46,838 bases of DNA, from the NCBI GenBank assembly GCA_017963755.1, contig JAGCTF010000174.1, positions 1 to 46,838 on the forward strand, read 5' to 3'. Made by a program: the position numbers and the translations under genes. Below are positions 4,174-35,691 of this stretch, one piece after another (the stretch's first letter is position 1; each line of letters starts with the position of its first letter). The DNA is from Clostridia bacterium. Lineage in GTDB: Bacteria > Bacillota > Clostridia > UBA1212 > UBA1255. The notes beneath the pieces are model-generated. The model was not told the origin of the DNA, searched no databases, and saw only the letters and a list, made by a program, of their open reading frames with translations.

Positions 4174-4226
4174 GCGTACCGGAAACGGGAAATTAATATG
4201 TGACAGAGAATAATGGAGGCGTATCA

Positions 4227-5612: not shown

Positions 5613-5621
5613 GGGGCAATT

Positions 5622-20612: not shown

Positions 20613-20614
20613 AA

Positions 20615-21136: not shown

Positions 21137-21155
21137 AATGATTCGGGAGAGCGTT

Positions 21156-21797: not shown

Positions 21798-23562
21798 GAC
21801 GATCGAACGGGAAGTGGATTTCTGCGTAGTAGGCGGAGGGCTTGCGGGCCTTTGCGCCGCTGTCAGTGCTGCGAGACACGGAGTAAAGACTGCGCTTATA
21901 CAGGAGCGCCCCATGCTCGGAGGCAATGCTTCCAGCGAGATACGTATGTGGGTGTGCGGTGCCGGTTTCAGAGGCGGTAACAAGCGCGAGACCGGTATTA
22001 TCGAAGAACTGATGCTCGAGAATATGTACCGCAACCCGGACAAGAATTATTCGGTCTGGGACGGGATCCTTTACGAACTTGCCGTCAACGAACCGAACCT
22101 TACTCTGATCCTTAATTGCTCTGTCAATTCTCTTGAAATGTGCGGGGACAAAATCGCCAGCGTCACCGGGTGGCAGATGACTACTCAGCGCTTCCAGACC
22201 GTGCGCGCTAAATTGTTCGCGGATTGCTCCGGAGACAGCGTGCTTGCCCCTCTCTCCGGCGCGGATCATACGATAGGCCGTGAGGCGAGATCGATGTTCG
22301 GAGAAAGCATTGCCCCCGAATCCGGCGACCGCCTGACTATGGGCATGAGCTGCATGATACAGGCGAGGGAAGAAGCGCGCCCGAGCACGTTCATTCCGCC
22401 TGCGTGGGCTTATCATTTTACCGCTGATGATATCTTTCACCGCGTGCCCGATATGAGCAATCCCGATGAGAACTTCTGGTATCTTGAAATAGGCGGAGAT
22501 GCCGATTCTATCGGCGATACGGAAGAAAAGCGCGACGAATTGCTGAAGATCGCATACGGGCTCTGGGATTACGTTAAAAACGCTCCGGAGAACAAGGCTA
22601 AAAACGCAAACTGGCGCCTCGACTGGGTCGGTATTCTTCCGGGAAAGCGCGAGAGCCGCCGCTATCTGGGCGACGTAATAATGACGCAGAATGACGTCAG
22701 CGCAGGAGGCCTATTCCCGGATCTTGTAGCGTACGGAGGCTGGCAGATGGACGATCACGATCCGCGCGGCTTCTATTCTAAAGGACGTCCCAACGTCAAT
22801 TATCCGGCTCCGTGCCCGTACGGAATACCGTACAGAAGTCTTTATTCCCGAAACGTATCAAATCTGCTTTTCGCAGGCCGCAATATTTCGGTAACGCACT
22901 GGGCGCTGAGTTCTACGCGCGTTATGGGTACGTGTGCGATTGTAGGTCAGGCGGCGGGGACCGCGGCGTATCTGGCTGTCCGCGACGGACTTACGCCCCG
23001 CGGCGTTTTCGAAAAGGATATCGGGGAACTGCAGGCGATACTCATGGACGATGACTGTTATCTGCCTTTCCATACCCGCAAGGTACCGGAACTGACAATG
23101 AATGCGGAAATTGACTGCCCTTCGCCGGATAAAGAAAATCTCAGGAACGGGATCGACCGCCCGATCGACGGCAGCGATAACGGAGTTACGTTGACGGCAG
23201 GGCAGAGTGCCGCATATCTGTTCGATAAAACGCGGAGTATCTCGCGCGTACGCATCATCTGGGACAGCGACCTTGACCGCGATACTATGCCGCTCATAGG
23301 AGGCCGCCCGTTCCGTCTTAATATGCTGGCAAACAGGCCGCTTAACTGTCCCGATTTTTACGTTCCGAAAACTATGACCAGATCTTACCGTATCGAAGGA
23401 CTTCGCGAGTCCGGAGAGTGGGTCAATATTTATGAATGCGGCGACAATCATCAGCGCCTCAACGTGGTTCAGCTTGAGGGAGAGTTCCGCGGCGTGCGGC
23501 TCGTTCCGCTGTCAACGTGGGGCAGCCCCGATTTCCATATTTTTTCTTTCGACGTTCAGTGA
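21778..23562 (+). CDS. FAD-dependent oxidoreductase (FAD_oxidored/GIDA-like family frequently found in glycan-utilisation loci)
   Basis: Dinucleotide-binding motif 'DFCVVGGGLAGLCAAVSAARHGVKTALIQERPMLGGN'. I chose ATG 21778 (MKQEQF), which overlaps the esterase stop by 20 nt; the ORF-track start at 21664 lies inside the esterase gene. Confidence 0.8.
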   Translation: MKQEQFKTIEREVDFCVVGGGLAGLCAAVSAARHGVKTALIQERPMLGGNASSEIRMWVCGAGFRGGNKRETGIIEELMLENMYRNPDKNYSVWDGILYELAVNEPNLTLILNCSVNSLEMCGDKIASVTGWQMTTQRFQTVRAKLFADCSGDSVLAPLSGADHTIGREARSMFGESIAPESGDRLTMGMSCMIQAREEARPSTFIPPAWAYHFTADDIFHRVPDMSNPDENFWYLEIGGDADSIGDTEEKRDELLKIAYGLWDYVKNAPENKAKNANWRLDWVGILPGKRESRRYLGDVIMTQNDVSAGGLFPDLVAYGGWQMDDHDPRGFYSKGRPNVNYPAPCPYGIPYRSLYSRNVSNLLFAGRNISVTHWALSSTRVMGTCAIVGQAAGTAAYLAVRDGLTPRGVFEKDIGELQAILMDDDCYLPFHTRKVPELTMNAEIDCPSPDKENLRNGIDRPIDGSDNGVTLTAGQSAAYLFDKTRSISRVRIIWDSDLDRDTMPLIGGRPFRLNMLANRPLNCPDFYVPKTMTRSYRIEGLRESGEWVNIYECGDNHQRLNVVQLEGEFRGVRLVPLSTWGSPDFHIFSFDVQ

Positions 23563-23581: not shown

Positions 23582-24343
23582 TCAGAATCCGAGCTTTTTA
23601 GAGATGTTGTCAGCGATACGAATTATCTTTTCGGCGATCGGTCCGACCGCTTCTGTCGTGACGCGTTCGACCGGGCCCGAGATACCTATTGACGCCACTG
23701 CGGAACCGGTATAATCATATATGCAGGAGGCGATACAGCGCATGCCGGGCGTCGTTTCTTCGTCGTCAACGGCGTACCTGCGCGCTTTGTTTGCTTTTGC
23801 CTCGAGCATCAGTTCCGGGCAGGACGTGATCGTATACTGAGTATGTTTTTCAAGCGGCCTTCCTGATAGCAGGCTGAGCTGTCTGTCTTCATCAAGTGCA
23901 TAAAAGAGGGCTTTCCCGTGCGCGGTACAGTGTACTTCTTCGACGTCTCCGGTTTTCAGAATAACGCCTAGATACTGCCTTTTCGTACAGCAGTCGATTA
24001 TATATATTCTGTCATCCTCCCATACGCTGAGACCCGCAGCCTCTCCCGTGACGTCGGCAAGCTCTTCCAGAAACGGATGGGCGATCGATCTGATGTCGTA
24101 CTTGTCGAGCACTCTGTCCCTGAATTTGCAAAGTTTAAGGCCGAGCTCGTACTTACCGTTGTCACCGATCTGTTCGACGTAACCGGCGGCTTCGAGCGTC
24201 CGAAGGAGCCTGTATGCCGTACTTTTATTAACGCCTAAAAAACGGCCTAGTTCAGTGACCCCCATCTTACCGTGCTCATATATGAGGTCAAGGATCTCAA
24301 GACCTCTTGATAACGAATTGATCGTCTGGATACCGTTGTCCAT
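23582..24343 (-). CDS. IclR family transcriptional regulator
   Basis: wHTH 'MGVTELGRFLGVNKSTAYRLLRTLEAAGYVEQ' plus a C-terminal IclR effector domain. I chose the start at 24343 (MDNGIQT, GGTGGA RBS). The longer ORF-track start (24409) would run through the consensus -35 box of the divergent operon. Confidence 0.85.
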   Translation of the reverse strand: MDNGIQTINSLSRGLEILDLIYEHGKMGVTELGRFLGVNKSTAYRLLRTLEAAGYVEQIGDNGKYELGLKLCKFRDRVLDKYDIRSIAHPFLEELADVTGEAAGLSVWEDDRIYIIDCCTKRQYLGVILKTGDVEEVHCTAHGKALFYALDEDRQLSLLSGRPLEKHTQYTITSCPELMLEAKANKARRYAVDDEETTPGMRCIASCIYDYTGSAVASIGISGPVERVTTEAVGPIAEKIIRIADNISKKLGF

Positions 24344-24402
24344 CGCAAATCCACCGCCAAAATGCATACATGATCCATTGCCTCCGCGGACAAATTCGAA
24401 TA

Positions 24403-24432
24403 TTGACACGCGCGGTCAATGAATGGTATAAT
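24403..24432 (+). promoter_or_regulatory. near-consensus sigma-A promoter of the catabolic operon
   Basis: TTGACA (24403-24408), an 18-nt spacer, then TATAAT (24427-24432), preceded by TGg (extended -10). It lies ~85 nt upstream of ATG 24518. Confidence 0.7.
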
Positions 24433-24449
24433 TTTACCATAAGAAACGC

Positions 24450-24466
24450 GTTGCGTCAAGCGCAAC
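24450..24466. promoter_or_regulatory. inverted repeat just downstream of the predicted transcription start (candidate IclR operator or 5'-UTR hairpin)
   Basis: GTTGCG-tcaag-CGCAAC is a perfect 6-bp inverted repeat. A second palindrome, TGGTA-taatTT-TACCA (24424-24439), overlaps the -10 box. Confidence 0.35.
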
Positions 24467-24517
24467 AAATTTCGCAAACAAAACATAATTTATCATATGA
24501 TTCAAGGAGTGGTTTTT

Positions 24518-25375
24518 ATGCTCAGATTAGGCTTCCTGGCTAACGGCGAGATGCTCGGATGGGAGAGCGAGAAGCTTTGCGCCTTTATACGCGAGTCAGG
24601 CTACGACTGTGTCGAACTGATCGACGATATCATTTTTTCTCCTGATAAACCTGAAAGCTATGTCAAAGGCCTGCTCAAAGCCGCGGCTGAGAATAACGTT
24701 CAGATCTCCGAGATCCTCGTTCAGCACGATCTCGTTATGAAAGATGAGGTCGCCAGACGCGCTTCCGTAGAACTTATCAAAACGAATATCAAAAAGGCAG
24801 CCGGGATGGGCGTTAATACGGTAAATCTTTTCACTGGCCCCGTTCCTTGGATGCCCGGTGCGCTTAAAGTAGGCAGAGACATTTCTTTTGAAGATACGTG
24901 GAATATGATCTTCTCCGCGTTTGATGAGATCATTCCCGTGGCTGAAAAGAACGGTGTCCGTCTCGCGGTCGAAAACGTCTGGGGCATGGCGGCGCACGAT
25001 TTCTTCACTAACAGCTTTTTGCAGAATCATTATGATTCGAAAAATCTCGGTGTAAACCTCGACGTTTCCCACGATACACTTTACGGGATCAAAGATCCTG
25101 CGTTCATCGTTAAATCGTGGGGGAAGGATAAGATCTTCCACGTCCATCTCAAGGACGCGGTCGGTATCCCCGAGGACGGCAGCTTCGTGTTCCCGGTGAT
25201 CGGCGAAGGCGTTGTGAATTTCAGGGCTCTGTTCGGAGCGCTGCGAGATATCGGATACGACGGAACTGTCAGCGTGGAATTTGAATCCTGGGCTTACCGG
25301 AACACCGTGTACGGCGGACAGCACGCACCCGCGGCTCCGGAGATGAGAAAAATTCTGGACAAGTTTTTAAATTAA
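24518..25375 (+). CDS. xylose isomerase-like TIM-barrel protein (sugar phosphate isomerase/epimerase family; IolE/IolI-like)
   Basis: Family-typical segments 'VELI...', 'MGVNTVNLFTG', 'GVRLAVENVWG', 'NLGVNLDVSH', 'HVHLKD' and 'YDGTVSVEFE'. A GGAG RBS precedes ATG 24518. Confidence 0.8.
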   Translation: MLRLGFLANGEMLGWESEKLCAFIRESGYDCVELIDDIIFSPDKPESYVKGLLKAAAENNVQISEILVQHDLVMKDEVARRASVELIKTNIKKAAGMGVNTVNLFTGPVPWMPGALKVGRDISFEDTWNMIFSAFDEIIPVAEKNGVRLAVENVWGMAAHDFFTNSFLQNHYDSKNLGVNLDVSHDTLYGIKDPAFIVKSWGKDKIFHVHLKDAVGIPEDGSFVFPVIGEGVVNFRALFGALRDIGYDGTVSVEFESWAYRNTVYGGQHAPAAPEMRKILDKFLN

Positions 25376-25414
25376 AACGCATTTTTGAACAGTCTTGGAA
25401 AGGGGACTTTTATT

Positions 25415-26467
25415 ATGAGCAAACACAACATCATCATTGTCGGCTGCGGCGCCATCACGTTCCGCTGGCTGGACCACATCACCAAACGCGACGACTGCAA
25501 AGTGCTTGCACTTGTCGACAGAAACGTTGACAACGCGATCAACTACCGCGACCGCTACGGCCTTGACTGCAACATCTATACGAGCGAAAAAGAAGCTCTC
25601 GAGAAGGAGAAGGGCAATCTTCTTATCGACCTTACGTTCGTCACGGCGCATTGCGAGATCGTAACTACCGCTCTTAAAGCAGGCTACGACGTTTTCGGTG
25701 AAAAACCGATGGCCTTCACGGTAGATCAGGTCAACGAGATCTTAAAGACAGTCGACGAGACCGGTAAACATTACTTCGTTATGCAGAACCGCCGCTTCAT
25801 CGACCGCGTAGGAAAGATCCGCGAACTCGTAAAATCAGGCCTGCTTGGTGAACCGACGCTGCTTAGCGGCTCGATCTACGTAAACGCTGACATGGGCAGC
25901 ATCCGTAACAACCTTAAATACCCTCAGCTCCAGGACAATAACATTCACAGCTTCGATATGGCCCGCTACCTCGTCGACGGCAAGCCTACTTCTGTAATCT
26001 ACCACAGCTTCCGTCCGAAGGGCTCGATGTATACCGGCGACTCCGCATGCGACGCGGTGTTCGAATTTGACAACGGTGTGACGTACCTGTTCCGCGGCTA
26101 TAACGGCGCTCAGGCATGCTGGACTTCCTGGGACAACGAATGGCGCATCGACTGCGACAAGGGTTCCGTGGTTTGGGACGGTTTCGGCGACGTGCATTAC
26201 CAGTATTTTGAGCATACCAACGGCCTTCACTTCGGCGAGTGGTTCAAAGAGGGCGTGTTCGAGAAGCCGGAAGTCGTTCGCGACCAGCACGACGGAGCAC
26301 TCGAAGACCTGTTCGACGCACTTGACACCGGCCGCACTCCCGGGACTGATTGCAAGGACAACGTCTACAGTATCGCGATGGTTCTTGCCAGCATCAAGAG
26401 CATCGAGGAGAACCGCAAGGTCGAGATCGTTGTCAACGACACGTATCCGTACCTGGAGCTGAAATAA
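25415..26467 (+). CDS. Gfo/Idh/MocA family oxidoreductase (IolG-like dehydrogenase)
   Basis: 'HNIIIVGCGAITFRWLDHI...ALVDRNVDNA' Rossmann start and 'GEKPMA' (the EKP motif). Length is ~350 aa. Confidence 0.85.
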   Translation: MSKHNIIIVGCGAITFRWLDHITKRDDCKVLALVDRNVDNAINYRDRYGLDCNIYTSEKEALEKEKGNLLIDLTFVTAHCEIVTTALKAGYDVFGEKPMAFTVDQVNEILKTVDETGKHYFVMQNRRFIDRVGKIRELVKSGLLGEPTLLSGSIYVNADMGSIRNNLKYPQLQDNNIHSFDMARYLVDGKPTSVIYHSFRPKGSMYTGDSACDAVFEFDNGVTYLFRGYNGAQACWTSWDNEWRIDCDKGSVVWDGFGDVHYQYFEHTNGLHFGEWFKEGVFEKPEVVRDQHDGALEDLFDALDTGRTPGTDCKDNVYSIAMVLASIKSIEENRKVEIVVNDTYPYLELK

Positions 26468-26522
26468 AGTATTGAGATAAAACCTGCAGCAATGGATATT
26501 GCAGATTGGAGATTGGATCTTT

Positions 26523-28310
26523 ATGAAAAAAACTGGCGGAGAAGTTATCGTACAAAAACTTGTTAATGAAAAAGTGCCGTACATCCTGGGCATCCCCGGC
26601 CACGGCGTTCTCGGACTGTTCGACGCGATCCGCAAAGCGGAGGCTGAAGGTAAAATCAAATACCTCCAGGTCAAGCACGAGCAGGCCGCAACAGCTATTG
26701 CCGACGGATACTACCGCGTAAAAGGCGAGCCTTTAGCAGTATTTGCCTCGATCGGTCCCGGCACACTTAACCTCTCTATCGGACTGGCAACGGCTTTCGT
26801 TGACTCCACTCCTTTCCTGGCTCTCTGCGGAGATACGCACACTAATATGTACGGCGTGGGCGTGCTTCAGGAAGTCGAAAAAAATCATGACAGCAACATT
26901 CAGCGCGCACTTGAGCCTCTGGTAAAACGCAGCTGGCGCGCCGAGACGGCCGACCAGCTTCCACGCATCATGAACAACGCGTTTAAGGAAATGCTTTCAG
27001 GGCGCCGCGGACCTTGCGCGATAACCCTTCCTATGGACGTGCAGGCTGATTCCACCGAAAAGGAGATTTCTCTGGATAAACAGCCCGTATGGCCTCTCCC
27101 GAACGCAGATAAAAAATCCGTTGACGACGCGATCGCACTGATGAAGACGGCTAAAAGGCCGCTCATATTTGTAGGCGCCGGAGCAATGCACGCGAAAGCC
27201 GGAGCACTCATTGAACGCCTGGCGGAAAAGTGGGGCGCGGCGATCATCACGACACTTGCGGCGAAAGGCACTGTTCGCGAAACACATCCTCAGTACTGCT
27301 TCCACACCGGCAGCAAGGGCACAAAGATCGGTCTCGAGATAAGCCGTTCTGCCGACGTCGTGCTCGCGCTCGGGACAAGATTCGCCGATGAATCTACATG
27401 CTCGTACCGCAAAGGGATCGCTTTCAATTTCCCGGACACGAAGCTTGTCCAGGTCGATCTCGACGGACATGAGATAGGCAAGAACTACAAAGCAGACGTG
27501 GGCGTTTTCTCTGACGTAGTTTCGTTCCTGGAGGCACTCGAAGCGGCTGCTCCTGATTTCAGTGTTAACAAAGCGTACCTCGATGAGATCGCACAGAAGC
27601 GCTCCGACTGGTTCGCGTTCGTAGCTGATAAACATAAGGTCCGCACGAAAGAGTTCACTATTTCGCGCCTCATCGGAACTTTATCCGAAACGCTGCCCGA
27701 TAACACGATCATTTCCACGTCTTCGGGCAATACACAGGCTCAGCTCTTCCAGGAGTACTGCTACAAAGAGCGCTATTGCAACCTTACGACCGGCGGCTTC
27801 TCCACCATGGGCTGGGCAATGCCGGCGGCGTTCGGCGCAAAGCTCGCTGCTCCCGACAGGCCTGTCGTGGCGCTGGTAGGAGACGGAGACTTTATGATGG
27901 TGATGCAGGAGCTTTCTACCGCTGCTCAGTATCGCATCCCGGTCGTTACGATCGTTGCGGATAACCGCGGCTGGATGGCAATTAAGGACCTGCAGACCGA
28001 CGTTCTGGGCATCGAAAACACGTTCGGCAACGATTTCGAACAATGCGGCAAACCTTATGCTCCCGATTTCAAGAAAGTAGCCGAAGGCTTCAACATCAAA
28101 GCTTACCGCGCGGAGAACGAAGCTGAACTGAAAGACGCGATCAAAGATGCGCTCGCTCAGGACGGTCCTTCGCTTATACACGTTCCCGTATCTTCTGAAT
28201 TCCCGTATTCCGGCGGCGAAGCGTTCGGATGGTGGGACGTTCCGATCCCGGGATACATGGAAGAAAAAAGAAAGGCGTACGAAAATGCCGTCAGAGAAGA
28301 AACAGTTTGA
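26523..28310 (+). CDS. thiamine-diphosphate-dependent enzyme of the acetolactate synthase superfamily, IolD-like (3D-(3,5/4)-trihydroxycyclohexane-1,2-dione acylhydrolase-like)
   Basis: ThDP motif 'GDGDFMMVMQELSTA...DNRGW'. The insertion after the 'LQEVE' segment and the C-terminal tail 'GWWDVPIPGYMEEKRKAYENAVREE' resemble B. subtilis IolD ('SWWHVGVAEVSEQESVQKAYEAKEKK', from my memory of that sequence). Superfamily assignment is secure; the IolD subfamily assignment is moderate. Confidence 0.7.
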   Translation: MKKTGGEVIVQKLVNEKVPYILGIPGHGVLGLFDAIRKAEAEGKIKYLQVKHEQAATAIADGYYRVKGEPLAVFASIGPGTLNLSIGLATAFVDSTPFLALCGDTHTNMYGVGVLQEVEKNHDSNIQRALEPLVKRSWRAETADQLPRIMNNAFKEMLSGRRGPCAITLPMDVQADSTEKEISLDKQPVWPLPNADKKSVDDAIALMKTAKRPLIFVGAGAMHAKAGALIERLAEKWGAAIITTLAAKGTVRETHPQYCFHTGSKGTKIGLEISRSADVVLALGTRFADESTCSYRKGIAFNFPDTKLVQVDLDGHEIGKNYKADVGVFSDVVSFLEALEAAAPDFSVNKAYLDEIAQKRSDWFAFVADKHKVRTKEFTISRLIGTLSETLPDNTIISTSSGNTQAQLFQEYCYKERYCNLTTGGFSTMGWAMPAAFGAKLAAPDRPVVALVGDGDFMMVMQELSTAAQYRIPVVTIVADNRGWMAIKDLQTDVLGIENTFGNDFEQCGKPYAPDFKKVAEGFNIKAYRAENEAELKDAIKDALAQDGPSLIHVPVSSEFPYSGGEAFGWWDVPIPGYMEEKRKAYENAVREETV

Positions 28311-29148
28311 CCAAAAAACAACTATGAAGGCCGCGGCGGAAATACGAAAAGGGTGCATACGCGCCCTTGCCGCCGCCGGATCCGGACATATCGGGGGAAG
28401 TATGTCGCTGGCGGAAATCCTGGCAGTACTGTACACCGATATATTGAATATCGATCCGAAAAACCCTCACATGGAAGAGCGCGACTGGGTGGTGCTTTCT
28501 AAAGGCCACTGCGGTCCTGCGCTGTACTCTACGCTCGCGTATAAAGGCTATTTTCCGGAGGATGAGCTGCTGACGCTTAACAAGGGCGGCACGAATCTGC
28601 CGAGCCACTGCGACAGGCTTAAGACGGTAGGGATCGACATCAGCACTGGCTCTCTCGGGCAGGGACTGTCTCTGGCTGCGGGCGTGGCGCTCGGGAAAAG
28701 GCTTCAGAATATTCCCGGAAACGTATATGCGATCGTAGGCGACGGCGAACTGCAGGAAGGCCAGAACTGGGAAGCGCTGATGTTCATTGCCCACCGCAAA
28801 CTTACGAATATCGTAGTTATCGTTGATAACAATAAACGCCAGCTCGACGGATACGTTGACGACATCTGCCGCGAAGAGGATCTTAAAGCAAAATTCGAGG
28901 CTTTCGGGTTCAACACGCTTCGCGTTGACGGACACGACGTAAACGCACTTTACGGTGCTTTCTGTGCCGTGCTGAATTCCGACAGGCCCGCAGCTGTTAT
29001 TTGCGATACCGAAAAGGGTCACGGAGTTAGTCTTTCGGAGATAGACGGGTTTAATCACTATATGCCCGTGAGTGAAGAGGATGCAGAAGCGGCACTTTCG
29101 GAGATCGACCGCAGACTGGAGGAAAATTATGAGCGTATTGGTCAATAA
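28285..29148 (+). CDS. transketolase, N-terminal (ThDP-binding) subunit
   Basis: 'AAGSGHIGGSMSLAEILAVLY', 'SKGHCGPALY' and 'GDGELQEGQNWEA'. The start at ATG 28285 overlaps the upstream gene by 26 nt. ATG 28324 is an alternative. Confidence 0.9.
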   Translation: MPSEKKQFDQKTTMKAAAEIRKGCIRALAAAGSGHIGGSMSLAEILAVLYTDILNIDPKNPHMEERDWVVLSKGHCGPALYSTLAYKGYFPEDELLTLNKGGTNLPSHCDRLKTVGIDISTGSLGQGLSLAAGVALGKRLQNIPGNVYAIVGDGELQEGQNWEALMFIAHRKLTNIVVIVDNNKRQLDGYVDDICREEDLKAKFEAFGFNTLRVDGHDVNALYGAFCAVLNSDRPAAVICDTEKGHGVSLSEIDGFNHYMPVSEEDAEAALSEIDRRLEENYERIGQ

Positions 29149-30103
29149 TTTTGCTTTGGACAACGTTGAGATGCGGCAGGCGTACTGCGATGCGCTGATC
29201 GCTGAAGCGGCCGTAAACGATAAGCTTATGGTGATCGACGCAGACGTGAGTCATTCGGTCGGCACGGGAAGGTTTTACAGCGCCTATCCTGACCGCGCGG
29301 TCAATTGCGGTATAATGGAAGCGCACGCCGTAGGGATGAGCGCCGGATTGTCCGCCACGGGAATGGTGCCGTTCTTCCACGCGTTCGGCGTCTTCGCTAC
29401 GCGCAGAGTATTCGACCAGATATTCATTGCCTGCGCATACCAGAACCTGAACGTTAAGATCATCGGTGCCGATCCGCGCGTCACGGCGGCAACGAACGGC
29501 GGTACGCATATGCCTTTCGAGGACCTCGGTGTGATGCGCCTGATACCCGGCGTGAAGATAATCGAACCTGCCGATTCTTCGATGTACGGACAGATCGTTC
29601 ACGCTATGGCCAATGATTACGGAGTTTACTACCTCCGCACCTCGAGGCGCAAGACGGTCCGGATCTACAAAGACAGAGTTAAATTCGAAACCGGAAAGGC
29701 GATAGAACTTTATGACGGAAAAGACGTATGCATAATCGCGTGCGGGATAATGGTCTACGAGGCGATAAAGGCGCGTGACGAACTGCTTAAGAAAGGAATA
29801 ACGGCGCGCGTGCTTGATATGCATACGATAAAACCAGTAGACCGGAAAGCTGTAATATCCGCCGCGGCTGAATGCGGCGCGATCGTAACGGCGGAAAATC
29901 ACAACGCGCTGGGCGGCCTCGGAAGCGCAGTATGTGAAGTCGTAACAGAAGAACTCCCTGTGCCCGTCGAACGCGTCGGCGTGCACGAGTCGTTCGGAGA
30001 AGTAGGTACACAGGACTATCTGCAGAAACGCTTTAAACTTACCGCCGAAGAGATCGTGAGAAAGGCGCTTATCTGCATTGAAAGGAAGGGCAGGAATATA
30101 TGA
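29129..30103 (+). CDS. transketolase, C-terminal (pyrimidine-binding plus C-terminal domain) subunit
   Basis: 'GIMEAHAVGMSAGLSATGMVPFFHAFGVFATRRVFDQI' and 'LDMHTIKPVD'. A GGAGG RBS precedes ATG 29129, which overlaps the upstream gene by 20 nt. Confidence 0.9.
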   Translation: MSVLVNNFALDNVEMRQAYCDALIAEAAVNDKLMVIDADVSHSVGTGRFYSAYPDRAVNCGIMEAHAVGMSAGLSATGMVPFFHAFGVFATRRVFDQIFIACAYQNLNVKIIGADPRVTAATNGGTHMPFEDLGVMRLIPGVKIIEPADSSMYGQIVHAMANDYGVYYLRTSRRKTVRIYKDRVKFETGKAIELYDGKDVCIIACGIMVYEAIKARDELLKKGITARVLDMHTIKPVDRKAVISAAAECGAIVTAENHNALGGLGSAVCEVVTEELPVPVERVGVHESFGEVGTQDYLQKRFKLTAEEIVRKALICIERKGRNI

Positions 30104-30705
30104 GAATAGCTGTTATCAATGAAGTATCGTCAAGAGAGAAAAATGACAAAGTTCTGGAAGCACTCAAGGGACTTCCGGATATTGAAGTGTTTAACGTCGG
30201 AATGAGTTCGCAGGGCGACGAGCCGGAACTCACGTATATTCATACGGGGCTGATGGCGGCGATCTCGTTAAATTCCGGTGCGGCAGACATGGTCGTCGGA
30301 GGCTGCGGAACGGGTCAGGGCTTCCTGATCTCTGCAATGCAATATCCCGGAGTTTTCTGCGGGCTCATTACCGAACCGCTTGACGCATGGCTGTTTTCAC
30401 AGATAAACGCAGGCAACTGCATTTCGCTTGCGCTAAATAAAGGCTTCGGCTGGGCGGCGGATATCAATCTCAAATATATTTTTGAAAAACTTTTTGCCGA
30501 TCCGATGGGTCAGGGTTATCCGCTTCACAGAGCAAAGAGCCAGGGCGAGAGCAGAGAGAAACTAAAAGACATAAACGCCGCTGCGCATAAGGATTTCCAA
30601 TCCGTGCTGAACAGCATAGATCACGAACTAATCGCACACGTTTTCACACACAGACCGTTTAAGGAGTTTATTGACAGCTATGGAAAAAATGAATTTATTT
30701 ATTAA
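30100..30705 (+). CDS. RpiB/LacA/LacB family sugar(-phosphate) isomerase, long (201-aa) form
   Basis: 'MRIAVINE...' opening and the core 'VVGGCGTGQGFLISAMQYPGVFCGL', which matches the CGTGxGxxIaANKxxGxR motif of the family. ATGA start/stop overlap with the transketolase C subunit. Confidence 0.75.
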   Translation: MRIAVINEVSSREKNDKVLEALKGLPDIEVFNVGMSSQGDEPELTYIHTGLMAAISLNSGAADMVVGGCGTGQGFLISAMQYPGVFCGLITEPLDAWLFSQINAGNCISLALNKGFGWAADINLKYIFEKLFADPMGQGYPLHRAKSQGESREKLKDINAAAHKDFQSVLNSIDHELIAHVFTHRPFKEFIDSYGKNEFIY

Positions 30706-32188
30706 TAACAAATACGTCGAATCCGCCGCGGATACTTATTATGACGTTTATAACCCGAGCACAGGCGAGATCATCGCAAAAGCTCCGAAATGCACTGAAA
30801 AAGAGGCCTCCGACGCAGTAGAAGCGGCGTACAGAGCATTTCCCGCATGGAAAGATACTCCCGTACTTAAGCGCGTACAGATCCTTCACAACGTGCGGCG
30901 CATAATGGAAGAAGAAATGGACGAACTCACCATGAGCGTTGCCCGCGAAAACGGTAAAGCCTGGGAAGAGGCGAGGGGCGACGTTCTTAAGGCTAAAGAG
31001 GCTACAGAACATGCTATTTCCATGCCTTCGCTGATGCTCGGAGATTCCATGATGAATGCTTCTTCAGGCTACGACACCGTGATGTACAGAGAGAGCGTAG
31101 GCGTCTTCCTGGGCATCGTACCGTTCAACTTCCCGGCTATGATACCGATGGGCTGGATGACACCGCTCTGCGTTGCCTGCGGCAATACGATCGTAATTAA
31201 AGCGTCGAGCTCAACTCCTATGACCGCGCTCAAATTCGCGGATATTTACAGGCGCGCAGGACTTCCCGACGGTGTCCTCAACGTCATTACGTGCGGCCGC
31301 GAAGTTACGGACGTGCTCCTGGCAGATGAAAGGATCAAGGGCGTTTCTTTCGTCGGCTCGACTAAAGTTGGCCTCCAGATCTATGAAAAAGCATCGAAGT
31401 ACGGAAAACGCGTACAGACTCTTTGCGAAGCTAAAAACCACGCGCTCGTTATGAAAGATGCTCCGATCAAACGTACCGCTGCCGGCATCATCAACGCTTC
31501 GTTCGGCTGCGCCGGTGAACGCTGCATGGCACTTCCTGTAGTAGCCGTTGAAGAGGAGATAGCCGACGAACTTGTCGCCGAGATCGTAAGACTCGCTTCT
31601 CAGATCAAAGTCGGTCCGGCTTACGATAAAACGACCAAACTCGGCCCCGTATACAGCCTTGCGCATAAACAGAAAATAATAGGCGATATCGAAAAAGGCA
31701 TTGCCGACGGCGCTGTGTGCGTTCTTGACGGCCGGAACGTTACGGTCGAGGGATTCGAAAACGGATTCTATCTCGGGCCCACGATCCTTGACCACGTCAC
31801 GAGCGATATGTACGTAGGTCAGCGGGAGATATTCGGACCGGTTCTCTGTATCAAGAGGGTCAAAGATTTTGAAGACGGTCTTCGTGTAATGAACGGCAAT
31901 CCTTTCGCAAACGGTTCGGTTATATTTACGCAGAACGGTTATTTCGCTCGCGAGTTCACCAAACGTACGGACGGAGGTATGGTAGGCGTGAACGTAGGCA
32001 TTCCCGTTCCCGTAGGTGTTTTCCCGTTCTCCGGCCATAAGAAGTCTTTCTTCGGCTCGCTTCACACTCTGGGCAAGGACGGTATGAACTTCTACACCGA
32101 TGCCAAATGTGTGACGCAGCACTGGTTCGCCGAAGAGGAGAAGGCTTCGCAGAAAGTATCCACGTGGGACGGAACGCTGAACGGATGA
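30680..32188 (+). CDS. CoA-acylating methylmalonate/malonate-semialdehyde dehydrogenase family (MmsA/IolA-like aldehyde dehydrogenase)
   Basis: Collinear similarity to B. subtilis IolA throughout, e.g. 'PFNFPAMIPMGWM', 'FVGSTKVG', 'GAGERCMA' (catalytic Cys) and 'PFSGHKKSFFGSLHTLGKDGMNFYT'. The start is ambiguous: TTG 30671, ATG 30680 or ATG 30689. Confidence 0.9.
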   Translation: MEKMNLFINNKYVESAADTYYDVYNPSTGEIIAKAPKCTEKEASDAVEAAYRAFPAWKDTPVLKRVQILHNVRRIMEEEMDELTMSVARENGKAWEEARGDVLKAKEATEHAISMPSLMLGDSMMNASSGYDTVMYRESVGVFLGIVPFNFPAMIPMGWMTPLCVACGNTIVIKASSSTPMTALKFADIYRRAGLPDGVLNVITCGREVTDVLLADERIKGVSFVGSTKVGLQIYEKASKYGKRVQTLCEAKNHALVMKDAPIKRTAAGIINASFGCAGERCMALPVVAVEEEIADELVAEIVRLASQIKVGPAYDKTTKLGPVYSLAHKQKIIGDIEKGIADGAVCVLDGRNVTVEGFENGFYLGPTILDHVTSDMYVGQREIFGPVLCIKRVKDFEDGLRVMNGNPFANGSVIFTQNGYFAREFTKRTDGGMVGVNVGIPVPVGVFPFSGHKKSFFGSLHTLGKDGMNFYTDAKCVTQHWFAEEEKASQKVSTWDGTLNG

Positions 32189-32226
32189 TATAGATCCCGT
32201 GCTTAATCCGGATAGATTTTAATTAC

Positions 32227-32255
32227 AGGCCTTCATTTAGTAAGGCCTTTTTTTA
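32227..32255 (+). terminator. rho-independent terminator closing the catabolic operon
   Basis: Stem AGGCCTT (32227-32233) / AAGGCCT (32243-32249), followed by a T7 run. Confidence 0.75.
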
Positions 32256-32284
32256 TTTACAAAACACAATTAAAAAGATATAAT
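32256..32284 (+). promoter_or_regulatory. sigma-A-like promoter for the downstream GH-like gene
   Basis: TTTACA (32256-32261), a 17-nt spacer, then TATAAT (32279-32284). It lies ~90 nt upstream of ATG 32376. Confidence 0.5.
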
Positions 32285-32375
32285 AAACGACGGAAATTTT
32301 GCCGCGTTATCTTTGAACGAATGCCGCAGTTTTTTTGGTATGATAATTGCGATCAGTATTTTAAGGGGATTGATT

Positions 32376-35156
32376 ATGAAACGTACAGTATTGATGATTC
32401 TTGCAGGTCTGATATGCATAAGCATTGTTTCCGGCTTCGGAAAAGGATACGAGAGCAATGTTCGTGCGGAAGCCGCGGCACAGGATGTTGTAACACCGAC
32501 GTTTATTTATGATTTCACAGACGATGAAACGTATACTATCGGAGGCGGCGGACAATGTTTTACTGAGCTTACCGACGAAGGACTCCTGTGTACCGCAGTA
32601 GAAGACGATCCCAACGTCGGGATCGGGCTTGCAGGCGAGGCGGGAAACGAAATGGAGTGGATATTGATCAAATACCGCGGAAACGTCAATCATTCTGCCA
32701 GATCCGGCGAGATCTATTATACAACTCCGGATTCTTCCTACAGCGAGAAACAGTCGATAAAGTGGCGTTGGAACGGTATCTCTGACGAGTGGCAGACGCA
32801 GGTCATCCATGCACGTTCTCTTGGCAAGATCGAAGATCTGGTGCTAGACATCAGGTACGACTTCCTCGCGGCCGGGGCAAGCAACTTCCCGATAGAAGAA
32901 GGCGAGAGTCTTGAGACTGCTTTCATCGCTTTCTTCAAAACTGAAGAGGAAGCAAAGAATTTCGATTATGACGCTTATATCGCATCGATCGCACATTCCT
33001 CTGATCCGACTCCTCAGGTTAAAGAAAAGTGGGAGACGCCGGCTTTTGCTGAACCTGACGTGACGCTCAAGGCGGACAACGTTGACGGTACACTTAAGTT
33101 CGTACGTGGATCGGGTTCGGACAGCGTCGTGATCTCATACAGCACCGGCGGCAATGATTTTTCGTACACTGTCCCTTACAATGCGTATATTATGAACGGG
33201 CCACTCAAAGGAATTGACGACCTCGAACGCGCGCTCCCGGATCAGTTTACGATCATTAAGCCTGACTACGTTGACCACGAGGACGAAAATCCGGTTAAAG
33301 TTGACGTCGAGCCCCGTACTATCGGCGTTTACGGCGAAAACGGAAAGCGCTACGTCGGAATTTTCTATTTCCTCTGGCTCGGAACGTTTCACGACGTCAA
33401 CGAAACTCCGAGAAATATCAGCAAAATAATGGAGCAGTACGGCACGGCGGCTAAAGATATGCCCGAAATCTGGGCGCCTGTCGGTAAAACGTTTTTCTTT
33501 GCTGAACCGCTCTACGGATATTACCGCATGAACGACGAATGGGTCGTCCGCAAGCATATGGAACTGCTTACGAACGCCGGAATCGATTTCCTTTATTTCG
33601 ACGTCACAAATAATTTTCTGTACGAAGAAAACGCGCTTCGGCTTATGAAAATCTGTCACGAAATGAACGAAGAAGGATTTTCTGCTCCGAAGGTGGTTTT
33701 CTATACGAATACCGACGCCAAAGTGCGCGTAAAACAGGCGTATAAGGCTATATATCAGCCCGGACTCTATCCGGATACTTGGATGATGCTGGACGGAAAA
33801 CCGCTCATTATCGCGCCGGAAGAAGCGAATATCGAAGGCTTCTTCACCATACGCGAGCAGCAGTGGCCGAATGAAGAAAAACGCGATAATACCTGGCCCT
33901 GGATCGACTGGGAATGGCCGCAGGAACTTTACGGACTTAATAACAGCGAAGCAATCAGCGTCTCTGTAGCGCAGCACAGCGGAAACAGCGAATTTTCCAC
34001 GTCCGGACTTTACGGATATACGAAAAACAGAGGCAGATCGTACAACGGCTATTCGGACAAACACACTGCCGATTCATATAAGCTGGGTACTAATATCCAG
34101 CTCCAGTTCAACAGGGCGATAACGTCAGGAGTGCCTTACGTGCTTGTCACAGGCTGGAACGAGTGGATCGCTTCGAGATTCCACAACGAAAAAGAAGAAC
34201 CAAATAAGATCAGATTCATCGATACGTTCGATTATGAGTACAGCCGCGATATAGAGATGAGCCGCGGCGGATATTTTGACAATTACTATATGCAGCTAGC
34301 TTCGAACGTGAGTGCGATAAGAGGTGCCGCGCCTGTCATTCTGCGTGACGACAGACATCAGATAAACGTTACCGGTGATTTTGCGCAATGGGATAAAGTG
34401 GAGCACTATTACTCTGATCCTTCGGGCGACGCTTCTGAGCGTGACTCTATCGGACACGGAGGGATCAAGTACGAAAATAAAACCGGAAGGAACGACATTG
34501 TCCGCGTAAAAGTGACCGGAGACGCGACGAATCTGTATTTCTATATCGAATGCAAGGATAATATTGTCCACGGCAGCGGTTCGGACAGCTGGATGCAGAT
34601 CTACCTGAACGTTGACGCCGATAAGAGCGGATGGTACGGATACGATTATATTCTTAACTACAAGCCTGAGAATGATTTTACGACAACGCTTGCGCGCTAC
34701 AGCGGCGCTGACGGTGCGTACGGTTTTACTCCCGCGGGGTCAAAACTTACCTATAAAGTTTCGGGCAAACAGCTGATGATCGGCTTTCCGATGGAGGAAC
34801 TCGGAATCGAATACTACGACCGCATCGAACTGGAATTTAAGATCGCTGACAGCAGAAGTTCGTATGCGACAATGGAGCAGTTTTACGAGGACGGTGACGC
34901 GGCGCCTTTAGGACGTATGAATTTCGTATATCAGACTTATATCGAGAGTGTGAGCGGCGATAATAAGACTGCCGTTGTTAAAGAGGCAGACCGCGTTAAA
35001 TACGCTCAAAACGAGCCTGATATCACTGAAAGACCTGATAAAGATAATAAAGATTCTAAGATAAACGGCTGGCTGATCGGCGGGATCGCTCTCGGAGCCG
35101 CTGCCGCTGCCGCCGTCGTGATCGTGATCATCGCGCGTAAGAAGAAAAAAGCATGA
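32376..35156 (+). CDS. secreted, C-terminally membrane-anchored putative glycoside hydrolase of unassigned family (paralog of 7480-10506)
   Basis: Signal peptide 'MKRTVLMILAGLICISIVSG'. Core motifs 'EPLYGYYRMNDEWVVRKHMELLTNAGIDFLYFDVTNN', 'VLVTGWNEWIASRF' and 'WMQIYLNVDADKSGWYGYDYILNY'. The C-terminal TM helix and basic tail read 'WLIGGIALGAAAAAAVVIVIIARKKKKA'. I chose the start at 32376 (AAGGGGA RBS). Confidence 0.6.
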   Translation: MKRTVLMILAGLICISIVSGFGKGYESNVRAEAAAQDVVTPTFIYDFTDDETYTIGGGGQCFTELTDEGLLCTAVEDDPNVGIGLAGEAGNEMEWILIKYRGNVNHSARSGEIYYTTPDSSYSEKQSIKWRWNGISDEWQTQVIHARSLGKIEDLVLDIRYDFLAAGASNFPIEEGESLETAFIAFFKTEEEAKNFDYDAYIASIAHSSDPTPQVKEKWETPAFAEPDVTLKADNVDGTLKFVRGSGSDSVVISYSTGGNDFSYTVPYNAYIMNGPLKGIDDLERALPDQFTIIKPDYVDHEDENPVKVDVEPRTIGVYGENGKRYVGIFYFLWLGTFHDVNETPRNISKIMEQYGTAAKDMPEIWAPVGKTFFFAEPLYGYYRMNDEWVVRKHMELLTNAGIDFLYFDVTNNFLYEENALRLMKICHEMNEEGFSAPKVVFYTNTDAKVRVKQAYKAIYQPGLYPDTWMMLDGKPLIIAPEEANIEGFFTIREQQWPNEEKRDNTWPWIDWEWPQELYGLNNSEAISVSVAQHSGNSEFSTSGLYGYTKNRGRSYNGYSDKHTADSYKLGTNIQLQFNRAITSGVPYVLVTGWNEWIASRFHNEKEEPNKIRFIDTFDYEYSRDIEMSRGGYFDNYYMQLASNVSAIRGAAPVILRDDRHQINVTGDFAQWDKVEHYYSDPSGDASERDSIGHGGIKYENKTGRNDIVRVKVTGDATNLYFYIECKDNIVHGSGSDSWMQIYLNVDADKSGWYGYDYILNYKPENDFTTTLARYSGADGAYGFTPAGSKLTYKVSGKQLMIGFPMEELGIEYYDRIELEFKIADSRSSYATMEQFYEDGDAAPLGRMNFVYQTYIESVSGDNKTAVVKEADRVKYAQNEPDITERPDKDNKDSKINGWLIGGIALGAAAAAAVVIVIIARKKKKA

Positions 35157-35662: not shown

Positions 35663-35691
35663 ATTTGTTTTTTAACCAGAGGGGTACTGCG

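Follow-up and report, generated by a model that had tools for sequence, protein, structure and literature searches.

An uncultured rumen Clostridium carries, in the 46.8-kb window that we analysed (the whole stretch of DNA), seven tightly packed, co-directional genes on the + strand, at 24518-32188 in the ORF listing (Table 1). An earlier, sequence-only reading had taken them for a tight operon with a near-consensus promoter and a terminator, divergent from an IclR gene. All of these elements are real, and the promoter is a perfect sigma-70 one: the −35 box TTGACA (24403-24408) and the −10 box TATAAT (24427-24432) are separated by an 18-nt spacer with an extended TG, and both boxes align and are kept across the rumen-clade loci. 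Just 3' of the −10 box lies the operator-like element AGAAACGCGTTGC, with the palindromic core AACGCGTT. This element is overlapped by an inverted repeat (24443-24455 / 24461-24473) and is retained in seven otherwise divergent rumen-clade intergenic regions; it may be the site to which the IclR protein binds. The terminator has a 7-bp stem, 4 pairs of which are G-C, and then TTTTTTTATTT; the scan placed the hairpin and T-run at 32227-32248. The gene 3' of the operon has a promoter-like site of its own (32256-32284).

Table 1. Features of the operon and its upstream region (positions in the window)
Feature	Position	Strand	Evidence or remark
IclR-family transcriptional regulator	23582..24343	-	Pfam HTH_IclR + IclR_C; divergent from operon
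Operon promoter	24403..24432	+	12/12 consensus positions, promoter scan
Operator-like element AGAAACGCGTTGC	24442..24454		Conserved in rumen clade; candidate IclR site
Xylose-isomerase-like TIM-barrel protein, 285 aa	24518..25375	+	Pfam AP_endonuc_2, 135 bits
Gfo/Idh/MocA NAD(P) oxidoreductase, 350 aa	25415..26467	+	Pfam
ThDP-dependent enzyme, 595 aa	26523..28310	+	Three TPP_enzyme domains
Transketolase N-terminal (PP-domain) subunit, 287 aa	28285..29148	+	Pfam Transketolase_N
Transketolase C-terminal (Pyr + C domain) subunit, tktC-like, 324 aa	29129..30103	+	PDB 6YAJ match
Long RpiB/LacAB-family isomerase, 201 aa	30100..30705	+	NF006753
MMSDH/IolA-type aldehyde dehydrogenase, 502 aa	30680..32188	+	TIGR01722
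Intrinsic terminator closing the operon	32227..32258	+	Hairpin + T-run

A GGAG-type ribosome-binding site precedes every start in the operon, and the four overlapping junctions are as first described (28285/28310, 26 nt; 29129/29148, 20 nt; an ATGA at 30100; and 30680/30705, 26 nt). The aldehyde dehydrogenase gene has an alternative TTG start at 30671; for the IclR gene the ATG at 24343 is the probable start, and its ORF is open to an upstream GTG at 24409. Families were assigned with Pfam and NCBIfam models, and every family named in the sequence-only reading was confirmed, including the split, two-subunit transketolase. No kinase, aldolase or transporter was found in the operon or in the rest of the window, which does contain glycan-degrading neighbours (a GH3 and a GH106-like protein). 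We found no paper describing this operon.

The arrangement recurs in at least 80 other species-level genomes, all 80 being metagenome-assembled Clostridia/Bacillota. Gene order and strand are conserved among them, and the arrangement is beyond chance. Genes were counted in the 53 species-level related loci with enough flank. The long RpiB-type isomerase and a Gfo dehydrogenase are each present in at least 48, the transketolase in 40, the IclR regulator in 37 and the dehydrogenase in 27; minimal variants lack the transketolase. The conserved core of the cluster is the ThDP enzyme, the Gfo dehydrogenase and the DhuI-like isomerase. Conservation of the neighbourhood thus holds for this core in most loci but not for the TIM barrel, which is accessory within the rumen clade, occurs in only 7/53 and has its slot occupied by a remote FucI-like protein in four relatives. 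The absence of a transporter likewise holds for the operon in the window but not for its relatives, as in 32 of the 53 loci the cluster includes a transporter of the GPH family or the CUT2 ABC type. Neither a kinase, an aldolase nor KduD was found near any of 85 related loci, bar one generic class II aldolase, and KduD is absent from the window as well. IolB, IolC and IolJ, which the sequence-only reading had noted as missing from the operon, were found neither in the window nor within 10 kb in the 85 loci. Neighbours in the relatives include CE6-type SASA and GDSL esterases, GH78, GH38, GH29, a sulfatase and a protein with a GH67-N-like domain. Some variants also carry GldA, DhaK/DhaL and GlpA-like genes. 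An ORF resembling aldehyde:ferredoxin oxidoreductase, assigned by sequence appearance only, lies beside some clusters.

IolD converts a 1,2-dicarbonyl compound into an aldehyde-acid, and the ThDP enzyme of the operon had been called IolD-like. Its NCBIfam scores were 353 bits for ALS, 321 for IolD and 265 for Xsc, and no cut-off was reached. We rejected its assignment as IolD itself, for which the cut-off is 715 bits and the identity 26-29%, which puts IolD and E. coli IlvI equally far away. Kinship with IolD did hold: in a neighbour-joining tree made with the C-terminal tail left out, the clade of the ThDP enzyme was sister to IolD (83/100 bootstrap), and the tail itself ('WWDVP...Y') is common to this enzyme and true IolD only. 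More than 3500 homologues were found at E<=1e-50, every one named just 'TPP-binding protein'. By these sequence criteria, the enzyme belongs to an unnamed family with IolD as its sister group and nearest characterised family, and its gene anchors the cluster.

A Gfo gene of some kind adjoins the ThDP gene in at least 48/53 loci, and three non-orthologous types occur. The likeness to IolG proposed for the product of the window gene was not borne out: with 88 bits it fell far short of the IolG cut-off (355), it is 26% identical to B. cereus IolG, and most relatives carry a non-orthologous Gfo protein of 401 aa in its place. IolG is nonetheless the best named match, though a weak one, for all three types. 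The TIM barrel, also held to be IolE-like, was rejected as IolE (33 bits where the cut-off is 290, with no BLAST match to B. cereus IolE). Its best, weak matches are L-ribulose-5-P 3-epimerase (39 bits), fructoselysine 3-epimerase (36) and MJ1311 (50). The best NCBIfam matches of the IclR protein are BhcR, IclR, AllR and KdgR, all below their cut-offs.

The RpiB-like protein, for which streptococcal DhuI had been cited as a precedent, is indeed of the DhuI family, with 230 bits against a cut-off of 137 for NF006753 and E=1.6e-52 for PDB 4U8E (gbs1892, that is, DhuI). KduI and IolB belong to a single family, and DhuI has the same function as KduI (PMC12838403). The 67 copies linked to the cluster form a monophyletic group with eight fixed differences; the isomerase can thus be placed, by sequence, in the DhuI family as a separate clade. 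Homologues in cultured organisms adjoin genes for KduD, oligogalacturonate lyase and a cupin protein, and the kduD-linked ones are about 44-50% identical to the cluster isomerase (44-48% for those of Rahnella and C. butyricum). Because the cluster copies form their own clade and the fixed changes adjoin the catalytic GCGTG motif, the comparison suggests a uronate-like substrate related to, but different from, that of DhuI.

In transketolase, Asp469 reads the 2-hydroxyl of the acceptor, and Arg358, Ser385 and Arg520 are anion-binding residues. The N subunit keeps His26, His66, His100, Asp155, Asn185 and His261 (E. coli numbering), and the C subunit, which matched the split transketolase of C. 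hydrogenoformans (PDB 6YAJ) with 252 bits, keeps Arg358, Ser385, Glu411, His473 and Arg520. His461 is replaced by Ala or Gly, and Asp469 by Asn, in 51/51 cluster copies. The PTS-linked split transketolases of Salmonella (tktC) and Niallia have the same loop variant, and therefore it cannot be read as an adaptation to carboxy-aldehydes.

The last gene had been considered MmsA/IolA-like, and rightly so: its product scored 527 bits for TIGR01722 (MMSDH/IolA; cut-off 448.5), is 44.7% identical to B. cereus IolA and matched B. subtilis MSDH (PDB 1T90) with 432 bits. As the MMSDH cut-off is passed and the Arg-Cys catalytic pair is kept, the evidence points to a beta-carboxy aldehyde as substrate, and the enzyme is presumably CoA-acylating. 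Of 36 cluster dehydrogenases, all or nearly all have Lys at the position of Arg106 in 1T90, which we take to be Arg124 of the literature, and Glu for Gly251; the latter substitution falls in the LxGAKN loop. Because of these two changes the true aldehyde may be one other than malonate semialdehyde.

Together, these features suggest an operon that is inducible and catabolic, serves to degrade a carboxylated sugar-like substrate and works without kinase or aldolase. We infer every chemical step and the substrate from sequence, and we give this reading a probability of about 0.4. The catabolic, inducible character would follow from the promoter, the operator-like palindrome, the divergent IclR gene, the transporters of the relatives and the glycan-degrading neighbours; the link to uronates, from an isomerase in the DhuI family with homologues beside kduD. 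Oxidation and ThDP-dependent cleavage of a C-C bond, by the Gfo dehydrogenase and the ThDP enzyme together, would produce an aldehyde-acid of the uronate type, and the DhuI-like isomerase would convert its aldose end into a 1-hydroxy-2-keto (ketol) end. The tktC-like transketolase could then transfer the two-carbon ketol unit to an acceptor (for example glyceraldehyde-3-P, giving xylulose-5-P), leaving a short carboxy-aldehyde for the MMSDH-like dehydrogenase to turn into an acyl-CoA. The IclR protein would be a repressor, relieved by an acid of the pathway.

As the substrate, a pectin- or xylan-derived 4-deoxy-5-keto-uronate is favoured over inositol. Starting from DHU, the ThDP enzyme would decarboxylate the 2-oxo-acid end and the Gfo enzyme would turn the resulting aldehyde into an acid by oxidation. 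From this, the isomerase would make 3,5-dihydroxy-4-oxopentanoate, from which transketolase would free malonate semialdehyde, to be converted by the dehydrogenase into acetyl-CoA and CO2. By derivation, this is the one route among those drafted that delivers malonate semialdehyde through transketolase. Several observations stand against it. We know of no precedent for a natural DHU decarboxylase, and unsaturated-uronyl hydrolase, pectate lyase, KdgF and KduD are absent from all related loci searched, so that a supply of DHU is only presumed. With three non-orthologous proteins in the Gfo slot, the role given to that enzyme is a guess, and the scheme leaves the TIM barrel and its FucI-like substitute unexplained. 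For each hexuronate the route would release two CO2 along with two reducing equivalents, with no obvious gain for a fermenter.

The sequence-only reading had proposed a route for myo-inositol or another cyclitol, with oxidation by the Gfo enzyme, dehydration by the TIM barrel, ThDP-dependent ring opening to 5-deoxyglucuronate and isomerisation by the DhuI-like protein in place of IolB; transketolase would then yield a C2 unit and 3-hydroxy-4-oxobutanoate, which the dehydrogenase would oxidise to malate or malyl-CoA. Five iol-like families do stand in a single transcription unit in the window. Among characterised proteins, IolD stands nearest to the ThDP enzyme and is alone in sharing its tail, the matches of the Gfo types and of the last gene lead to IolG and IolA, the relationships among KduI, IolB and DhuI would allow the exchange of isomerases, and some variants have a CUT2 ABC transporter. 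The route is possible but doubtful, and is not favoured, because the TIM barrel is not IolE, the Gfo and ThDP proteins are far below the IolG and IolD cut-offs, and the predicted C4 aldehyde is a gamma-carboxylate, not a beta-carboxy aldehyde of the type used by MMSDH. Moreover, the ThDP orthologues are 61-85% identical across variants and should share a substrate, but 46 of the 53 loci lack the TIM barrel, which is sometimes replaced by the FucI-like protein; nor, to our knowledge, are GPH transporters inositol carriers. What survives is the idea of a kinase-free, transketolase-dependent pathway.

Such a pathway could also degrade a hexuronate or oxidised cyclitol in two rounds of isomerase and transketolase, by analogy with the sulfo-TK pathway, in which a PF02502 isomerase and a split transketolase work iteratively (PMC9594981). 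The Gfo and ThDP enzymes would form a fully hydroxylated uronate or 5-keto-aldonate, transketolase would take a C2 unit, and the tetruronate would be re-isomerised and cut a second time, so that the dehydrogenase would receive glyoxylate or tartronate semialdehyde. The sub-threshold matches of the IclR protein to the glyoxylate-responsive BhcR, IclR and AllR agree with this, the Arg-to-Lys and Gly-to-Glu changes would be in keeping with a malonate semialdehyde analogue that bears a 2-hydroxyl group, and the minimal variants could feed ordinary hexuronate pathways. We nevertheless consider it unlikely: glyoxylate-handling genes are absent from the clusters, one Gfo enzyme would have to oxidise twice, and nothing in the data positively favours two rounds over the DHU route. 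A neutral aldose or ketose could instead undergo oxidation to a 1,2-dicarbonyl (an osone or 2,3-diulose), whose hydrolytic cleavage by the ThDP enzyme would yield a short acid and a shorter aldose; after isomerisation and transketolase action, the aldose would give glyceraldehyde, glycolaldehyde or acetaldehyde. The GldA, DhaK/DhaL and GlpA-like genes suggest C3/C2 neutral products, C3 products not being predicted by the favoured scheme; the possible aldehyde:ferredoxin oxidoreductase and the FucI-like protein would also suit a neutral sugar, and in aerobes, relatives that are 41% identical have GMC, Gfo, ThuA and TIM genes as neighbours, a set typical of keto-sugar formation. However, an isomerase of the DhuI family, a dehydrogenase of the MMSDH type and a regulator of the IclR type all point to carboxylated intermediates and make this reading improbable. 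Finally, the E. coli sulfoquinovose importer is a GPH protein, and four relatives have a protein that weakly matches the sulfoquinovose isomerase SftI (50 bits; cut-off 700). A combination of SqwGH-like split transketolase, SqwI-like PF02502 isomerase, acylating sulfoacetaldehyde dehydrogenase and Xsc-like desulfonating ThDP enzyme would resemble the sulfo-TK pathway (PMC9594981). Yet the window lacks sulfoquinovosidase, an SqvD/SftI-grade isomerase, a sulfonate exporter and sulfoacetyl-CoA ligase, and none of these was recognised in the related loci among the neighbours that were annotated. The Xsc score of the ThDP enzyme is lower than those for ALS and IolD, the isomerase is a long, DhuI-type protein and the core Gfo dehydrogenase would have no role, so that a sulfonate substrate seems highly improbable.

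The favoured, carboxylated-substrate operon has the Gfo/Idh/MocA, xylose-isomerase-like TIM-barrel, IolD-related ThDP and MMSDH/IolA families in common with the iolABCDEGJ operon of Bacillus and Rhizobium, and its predicted logic is alike (oxidise, cleave to an aldehyde-acid, isomerise, split, oxidise a carboxy-aldehyde). It differs in that IolB, IolC (the kinase) and IolJ (the aldolase) give way to a DhuI-type isomerase and a split transketolase, in that the ThDP, Gfo and TIM proteins lie far below the respective iol cut-offs, and in that the TIM barrel is dispensable in relatives. With the DhuI/kduD-type uronate systems it shares the isomerase family and, in its regulator, the family of KdgR; the GPH transporters of the relatives belong to a family that includes known oligouronide carriers. 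In place of the KduD/DhuD reductase, KdgK and KdgA of those systems, however, the isomerase, itself of a separate clade, is partnered by the ThDP enzyme and the Gfo dehydrogenase. The Salmonella tktC operons (STM2340/2341-type) have the same split architecture, with the His461 equivalent lost and Asn for Asp469, but they lack ThDP, Gfo or DhuI-like partners and have an ascorbate-type PTS, and therefore phosphorylated substrates. The proposed route is also like the sulfo-TK pathway of Clostridium sp. MSTE9, which is kinase-free and in which a split transketolase uses a non-phosphorylated, anionic ketose as substrate, the ketol is formed anew by a PF02502 isomerase and a dehydrogenase handles the terminal aldehyde (PMC9594981). 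In contrast to that pathway, the present operon is without sulfoquinovose-specific genes, has the ThDP and Gfo genes as an additional core, and combines an isomerase of the long DhuI type with a dehydrogenase of the MMSDH type.

The seven genes of the operon encode a TIM-barrel protein, a Gfo/Idh/MocA dehydrogenase, a ThDP enzyme, the two subunits of a transketolase, a long RpiB-family isomerase and an aldehyde dehydrogenase, with a GGAG-type ribosome-binding site ahead of every start. The tight packing of these genes and the overlap of the last four junctions, described in a sequence-only reading of the window, were found at the same coordinates in the ORF list, and the promoter, the terminator-type hairpin and the divergent IclR gene were likewise confirmed by the promoter scan and the ORF list. 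As that reading had it, the operon lacks a kinase, an aldolase and a transporter, and none was found elsewhere in the window. The IclR regulator scored over the Pfam cut-offs for HTH_IclR (56 bits) and IclR_C (139 bits) and reached no NCBIfam equivalog cut-off. Directly 3' of the -10 box lies an element that is kept in seven rumen-clade loci, among which the surrounding intergenic DNA diverges. In the window, this operator-like element sits in an imperfect inverted repeat; it is a candidate IclR operator. No riboswitch was detected in the leader by an Rfam scan.

Features of the operon region and of other parts of the window
Feature	Position	Strand	Observation
Second Gfo/Idh/MocA gene	3034-4173		directly upstream of the AmmeMemoRadiSam trio
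AmmeMemoRadiSam trio	4200-6470	+	fused LigB-like (Memo-type) and AMMECR1 protein, then radical SAM protein
Three ORFs	18460-21136		no Pfam family; ahead of the next ORF
ORF ahead of the PF12831 gene	21105-21797		no Pfam match; GGYSLAG serine-esterase-like motif
FAD-dependent oxidoreductase	21778-23562	+	PF12831, 297 bits; convergent with the IclR gene
IclR gene	23582-24343		divergent from the operon; ORF open up to 24409
Operon promoter	24403-24432		TTGACA-18-TATAAT with extended TG; 12/12 match (promoter scan)
Putative operator AGAAACGCGTTGC	24442-24454		within the inverted repeat
Other arm of the repeat	24461-24473
Seven-gene operon	24518-32188	+	overlaps at 28285/28310, 29129/29148, 30100 (ATGA) and 30680/30705
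Hairpin and T-run	32227-32248		promoter scan
Promoter of the 947-aa protein gene	32256-32284		near-consensus
947-aa protein gene	32313-35156	+	N-terminal signal or anchor, C-terminal membrane anchor; no Pfam family
RNase P RNA, bacterial class A	35322-35665	+	Rfam RF00010, 281 bits
ORF	35623-37026		overlaps the RNase P RNA 3' end, so that its start is probably wrong

When one genome per GTDB species was scanned, 80 loci were retrieved, all from metagenome-assembled Clostridia/Bacillota of rumen, termite gut, chicken gut and digesters. A sheep-omasum MAG matches the window itself at about 97% identity. Window proteins were mapped onto the loci, and genes were counted in the 53 loci that extend for 7 kb or more downstream. 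The long RpiB gene and a Gfo gene were each present in at least 48 of the 53, the transketolase in 40, IclR in 37 and the aldehyde dehydrogenase in 27. These counts define a core made up of the ThDP enzyme, Gfo and the DhuI-like isomerase. When the gene order singled out by the sequence-only reading was followed in other Clostridia, the core recurred; the TIM barrel was found in only 7/53 loci and missing from the other 46, and a transporter (GPH/MFS_2 or CUT2 ABC) was present in 32/53. In L014 and L016, two relatives of about 80% identity, both transketolase genes are absent and the ThDP gene runs directly into the long RpiB and dehydrogenase genes. This clean loss shows that close relatives can do without a dedicated transketolase. 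Genes of three non-orthologous types occupy the Gfo slot, a remote FucI-like protein takes the place of the TIM gene in four rumen relatives, and GldA with DhaK/DhaL, or GlpA-like genes, are added in some variants.

Genes for glycan degradation accompany the cluster: a GH3 and a GH106-like protein in the window and, in related loci, esterases (CE6-type SASA, GDSL), glycosidases (GH78, GH38, GH29), a sulfatase, an LmbE-type deacetylase and a DUF4838 protein with a GH67-N-like domain. One variant, seen in seven loci (L065, L066, L068, L069, L072, L077 and L079), has no transketolase, dehydrogenase or IclR gene. There, the ThDP, Gfo and long RpiB genes lie amid a GH29 fucosidase, a peptide-type ABC transporter and an ORF called flavodoxin-like from the appearance of its sequence only, together with a DUF4838/GH67-N-like protein, a sulfatase and an LmbE-type deacetylase; this gene set suggests that the locus serves a sulfated or acetylated glycan of host or plant origin.

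The ThDP enzyme has three TPP_enzyme domains (Pfam), and its NCBIfam scores for ALS (353 bits), IolD (321 bits) and Xsc (265 bits) reached no cut-off, that of the IolD model (TIGR04377, 3D-(3,5/4)-trihydroxycyclohexane-1,2-dione hydrolase) being 715 bits. It is 26-29% identical to three annotated IolD proteins and 28.5% identical to E. coli IlvI. More than 3500 homologues were found at E<=1e-50; the best 120 of these are 63-98% identical and all metagenomic, and where a name is given, it is just 'thiamine pyrophosphate-binding protein' or 'acetolactate synthase'. In a named-family scan, the nearest 50%-identity representatives were unnamed ALS-like proteins, and no curated cut-off was reached. 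MAFFT alignment showed a C-terminal G-W-W-D-(V/F)-P...Y motif only in this family, its unnamed relatives and IolD, and not in IlvI, PoxB, Gcl, AlsS or 5-guanidino-2-oxopentanoate decarboxylase; a PDB search with the C-terminal tail alone returned no solved structure that bears it. In a neighbour-joining tree of small sampling, from which the tail, Xsc and cyclohexanedione hydrolase were left out, the clade was sister to IolD (83/100 bootstrap). Judged from these comparisons, IolD is the closest known family, yet the ThDP enzyme is not an IolD. The earlier description of the enzyme as IolD-like stands as to its sister position and common tail, and fails as to score and identity.

Relatives 41% identical to the ThDP enzyme occur in cultured Shinella, Sinorhizobium, Thalassospira, Priestia and Arthrobacter, where they adjoin HisD-like, GMC, Gfo, ThuA/TIM and sugar ABC genes. 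Because these are different clusters (HisD-like, GMC, ThuA), no function was transferred from them, although these clusters, too, have to do with oxidised sugars. On the Shinella, Priestia, Thalassospira and Arthrobacter plasmids (L086, L087, L088 and L089), the relative is always near a HisD-like dehydrogenase, often also with an aspartate-ammonia-lyase-like gene, GMC, ThuA/TIM/Gfo, GH3 or hexosaminidase, and a sugar ABC transporter. These genes make up a further uncharacterised cluster, which may serve an amino- or keto-sugar.

The long RpiB protein belongs to NF006753, the DhuI family (230 bits; cut-off 137), and matches S. agalactiae DhuI (gbs1892, PDB 4U8E, E=1.6e-52), which bears out the parallel with DhuI drawn earlier. 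Homologues in Rahnella (44-48% identity) adjoin kduD, oligogalacturonate lyase and a cupin protein, and the C. butyricum homologue adjoins a KduD-like short-chain dehydrogenase; no KduD homologue was found by BLAST beside any cluster copy in the window and 85 loci. A separate clade is formed by the 67 cluster-linked copies, with eight fixed differences, several of which (N9V, T67G and A75F among them) flank the catalytic GCGTG motif; this suggests a uronate-like substrate that is related but not the same. DhuI and KduI are non-homologous counterparts, and KduI falls in one family with IolB (PMC12838403).

The last gene of the operon was correctly read as encoding an MmsA/IolA-type dehydrogenase. 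Its product passed the IolA/MMSDH model (TIGR01722; 527 bits, cut-off 448.5) and resembles both B. subtilis MSDH (PDB 1T90; 432 bits) and B. cereus IolA (44.7% identity). In MMSDH, Talfournier et al. (2011) reportedly assigned Arg301-Cys302 as the catalytic pair and Arg124 as a second carboxylate-binding Arg, presumably Arg106 of 1T90. The Arg-Cys pair is kept in 36/36 cluster dehydrogenases; the residue aligned to Arg106 is Lys in all 36, and Gly251 (LxGAKN loop) is Glu in 33. The altered residues may point to an aldehyde other than malonate semialdehyde.

That the transketolase is split into N- and C-terminal subunits, as first read, was confirmed by Pfam/NCBIfam. ThDP/metal-binding and catalytic residues are conserved (His26, His66, His100, Asp155, Asn185, His261, Glu411, His473, Phe434 and Phe437; E. 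coli TktA as reference and numbering), and the cluster transketolases retain the anion-binding Arg358, Ser385 and Arg520. With these three residues, the canonical substrate channel comprises His461, which contributes to binding of the substrate's phosphate, and Asp469, which recognises the 2-hydroxyl on the acceptor aldehyde. Both are kept in the E. coli, human and C. hydrogenoformans (split, PDB 6YAJ) transketolases; in 51/51 cluster copies His461 is replaced by Gly or Ala, and Asp469 by Asn. Salmonella (tktC type) and Niallia have the same altered loop in their PTS-linked split transketolases, so that it marks a subfamily and not the cluster alone. This weakened the idea that the loop is an adaptation to a carboxy-aldehyde. 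The split transketolases of L104 (a Salmonella plasmid-like replicon) and L105 (Niallia taxi) adjoin ascorbate-type PTS genes.

Taken together, the family-level chemistry fits one logic, a kinase-free route for a carboxylated sugar, to which we give a probability of about 0.4. Gfo and the ThDP enzyme would produce an aldehyde-acid, the isomerase would convert it to a ketol, the transketolase would remove a C2 unit, and the dehydrogenase would take the residual carboxy-aldehyde. In the version that starts from 4-deoxy-5-keto-uronate (DHU), the ThDP enzyme would decarboxylate OHC-CHOH-CHOH-CH2-CO-COO-, Gfo would oxidise the new aldehyde to give OHC-CHOH-CHOH-CH2-COO-, isomerisation would yield HOCH2-CO-CHOH-CH2-COO-, and cleavage by transketolase would release a C2 unit and OHC-CH2-COO-, to be oxidised to acetyl-CoA and CO2. 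By derivation, this is the only one of the drafted routes to yield malonate semialdehyde, the natural MMSDH substrate, via transketolase, and the remaining C3 hydroxyl would fit the transketolase-donor configuration, since DKII/KDG are D-glycero. Against it, a DHU-producing enzyme, KduD and KdgF are not linked to the cluster in the window and 85 loci. This, a role for Gfo that is a guess, the unexplained TIM barrel or FucI-like substitute and C3-metabolism genes of some variants, and the altered dehydrogenase residues are why the general scheme is held only tentatively, the DHU version about half as firmly, and the inositol route discussed below is rated improbable.

The inositol route of the sequence-only reading would employ the same enzymes as the carboxylated-sugar scheme. 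BLAST with B. cereus proteins over the window and 85 loci found no IolB or IolC and, for IolJ, a single generic class II aldolase in one locus (L007), in line with the claim that iolB, iolC and iolJ are absent from the operon; searches of the same scope for IolE, KduD, KdgF and Ogl gave nothing of relevance. The inositol route also requires the TIM barrel to be IolE, an identity that is neither supported nor conserved: against the inosose dehydratase model TIGR04379 the protein scored 33 bits over a partial stretch (cut-off 290), it had no BLAST match to B. cereus IolE at E<=1e-5, and it is an AP_endonuc_2 protein (Pfam) whose weak top NCBIfam scores are ketose 3-epimerases and whose best PDB match is MJ1311. 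Nor is the IolG-like label supported for the window Gfo, with 88 bits against the inositol 2-dehydrogenase model TIGR04380 (cut-off 355; 127-133 bits for the other Gfo types of the relatives). Moreover, the route would end in a gamma-carboxy aldehyde. Two of the other alternatives raised at that stage were set aside. A 3-keto-glycoside cleavage module of Gfo and a TIM lyase is at odds with negligible scores against the glycoside 3-dehydrogenase models BT_2158 and BT_2159 (the window Gfo scored 29 bits, the other types 44 or less; cut-offs 750 and 650). A sulfo-transketolase-like route would call for sulfoquinovose-specific genes, and no SqvD/SftI isomerase, sulfoquinovosidase or sulfonate export gene was found in the window; the SftI model gave only a 50-bit match (cut-off 700), in four relatives.

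If the carboxylated-sugar scheme is right, and we put this at somewhat below even odds, the cluster would encode a phosphorylation-free catabolic pathway not described so far, which is widespread among uncultured Clostridia of guts and digesters and includes at least two new activities. The IolD-sister ThDP enzyme would cleave or decarboxylate an oxidised sugar acid, for example as a natural 4-deoxy-5-keto-uronate decarboxylase, and the tktC-type transketolase would use a carboxylated, non-phosphorylated ketose donor and release malonate semialdehyde; between them, the two enzymes would carry carbon from uronates or cyclitols straight to xylulose-5-P and acetyl-CoA. Pectin, glucuronoxylan and host glycans supply uronic acids, and phytate supplies cyclitols; both kinds of compound are major carbon sources in rumen and gut, and to our knowledge all known routes for them need a kinase and an aldolase. 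A conserved module that dispenses with both, shared by many uncultured Christensenellales, Oscillospiraceae and rumen Clostridia, would extend carbohydrate fermentation maps by a new branch. It would also assign functions to a large ThDP family without a name, whose thousands of sequences carry only the label 'TPP-binding protein', a second DhuI-like isomerase clade, the tktC-type transketolases and an MMSDH subfamily, and would offer ATP-neutral parts for engineering pectin and xylan valorisation.

A full-text literature search found no description of the cluster, which probably contains new enzyme specificities. All of its components come from known families, and its logic resembles that of the iol, DhuI/KduD and sulfo-TK pathways.
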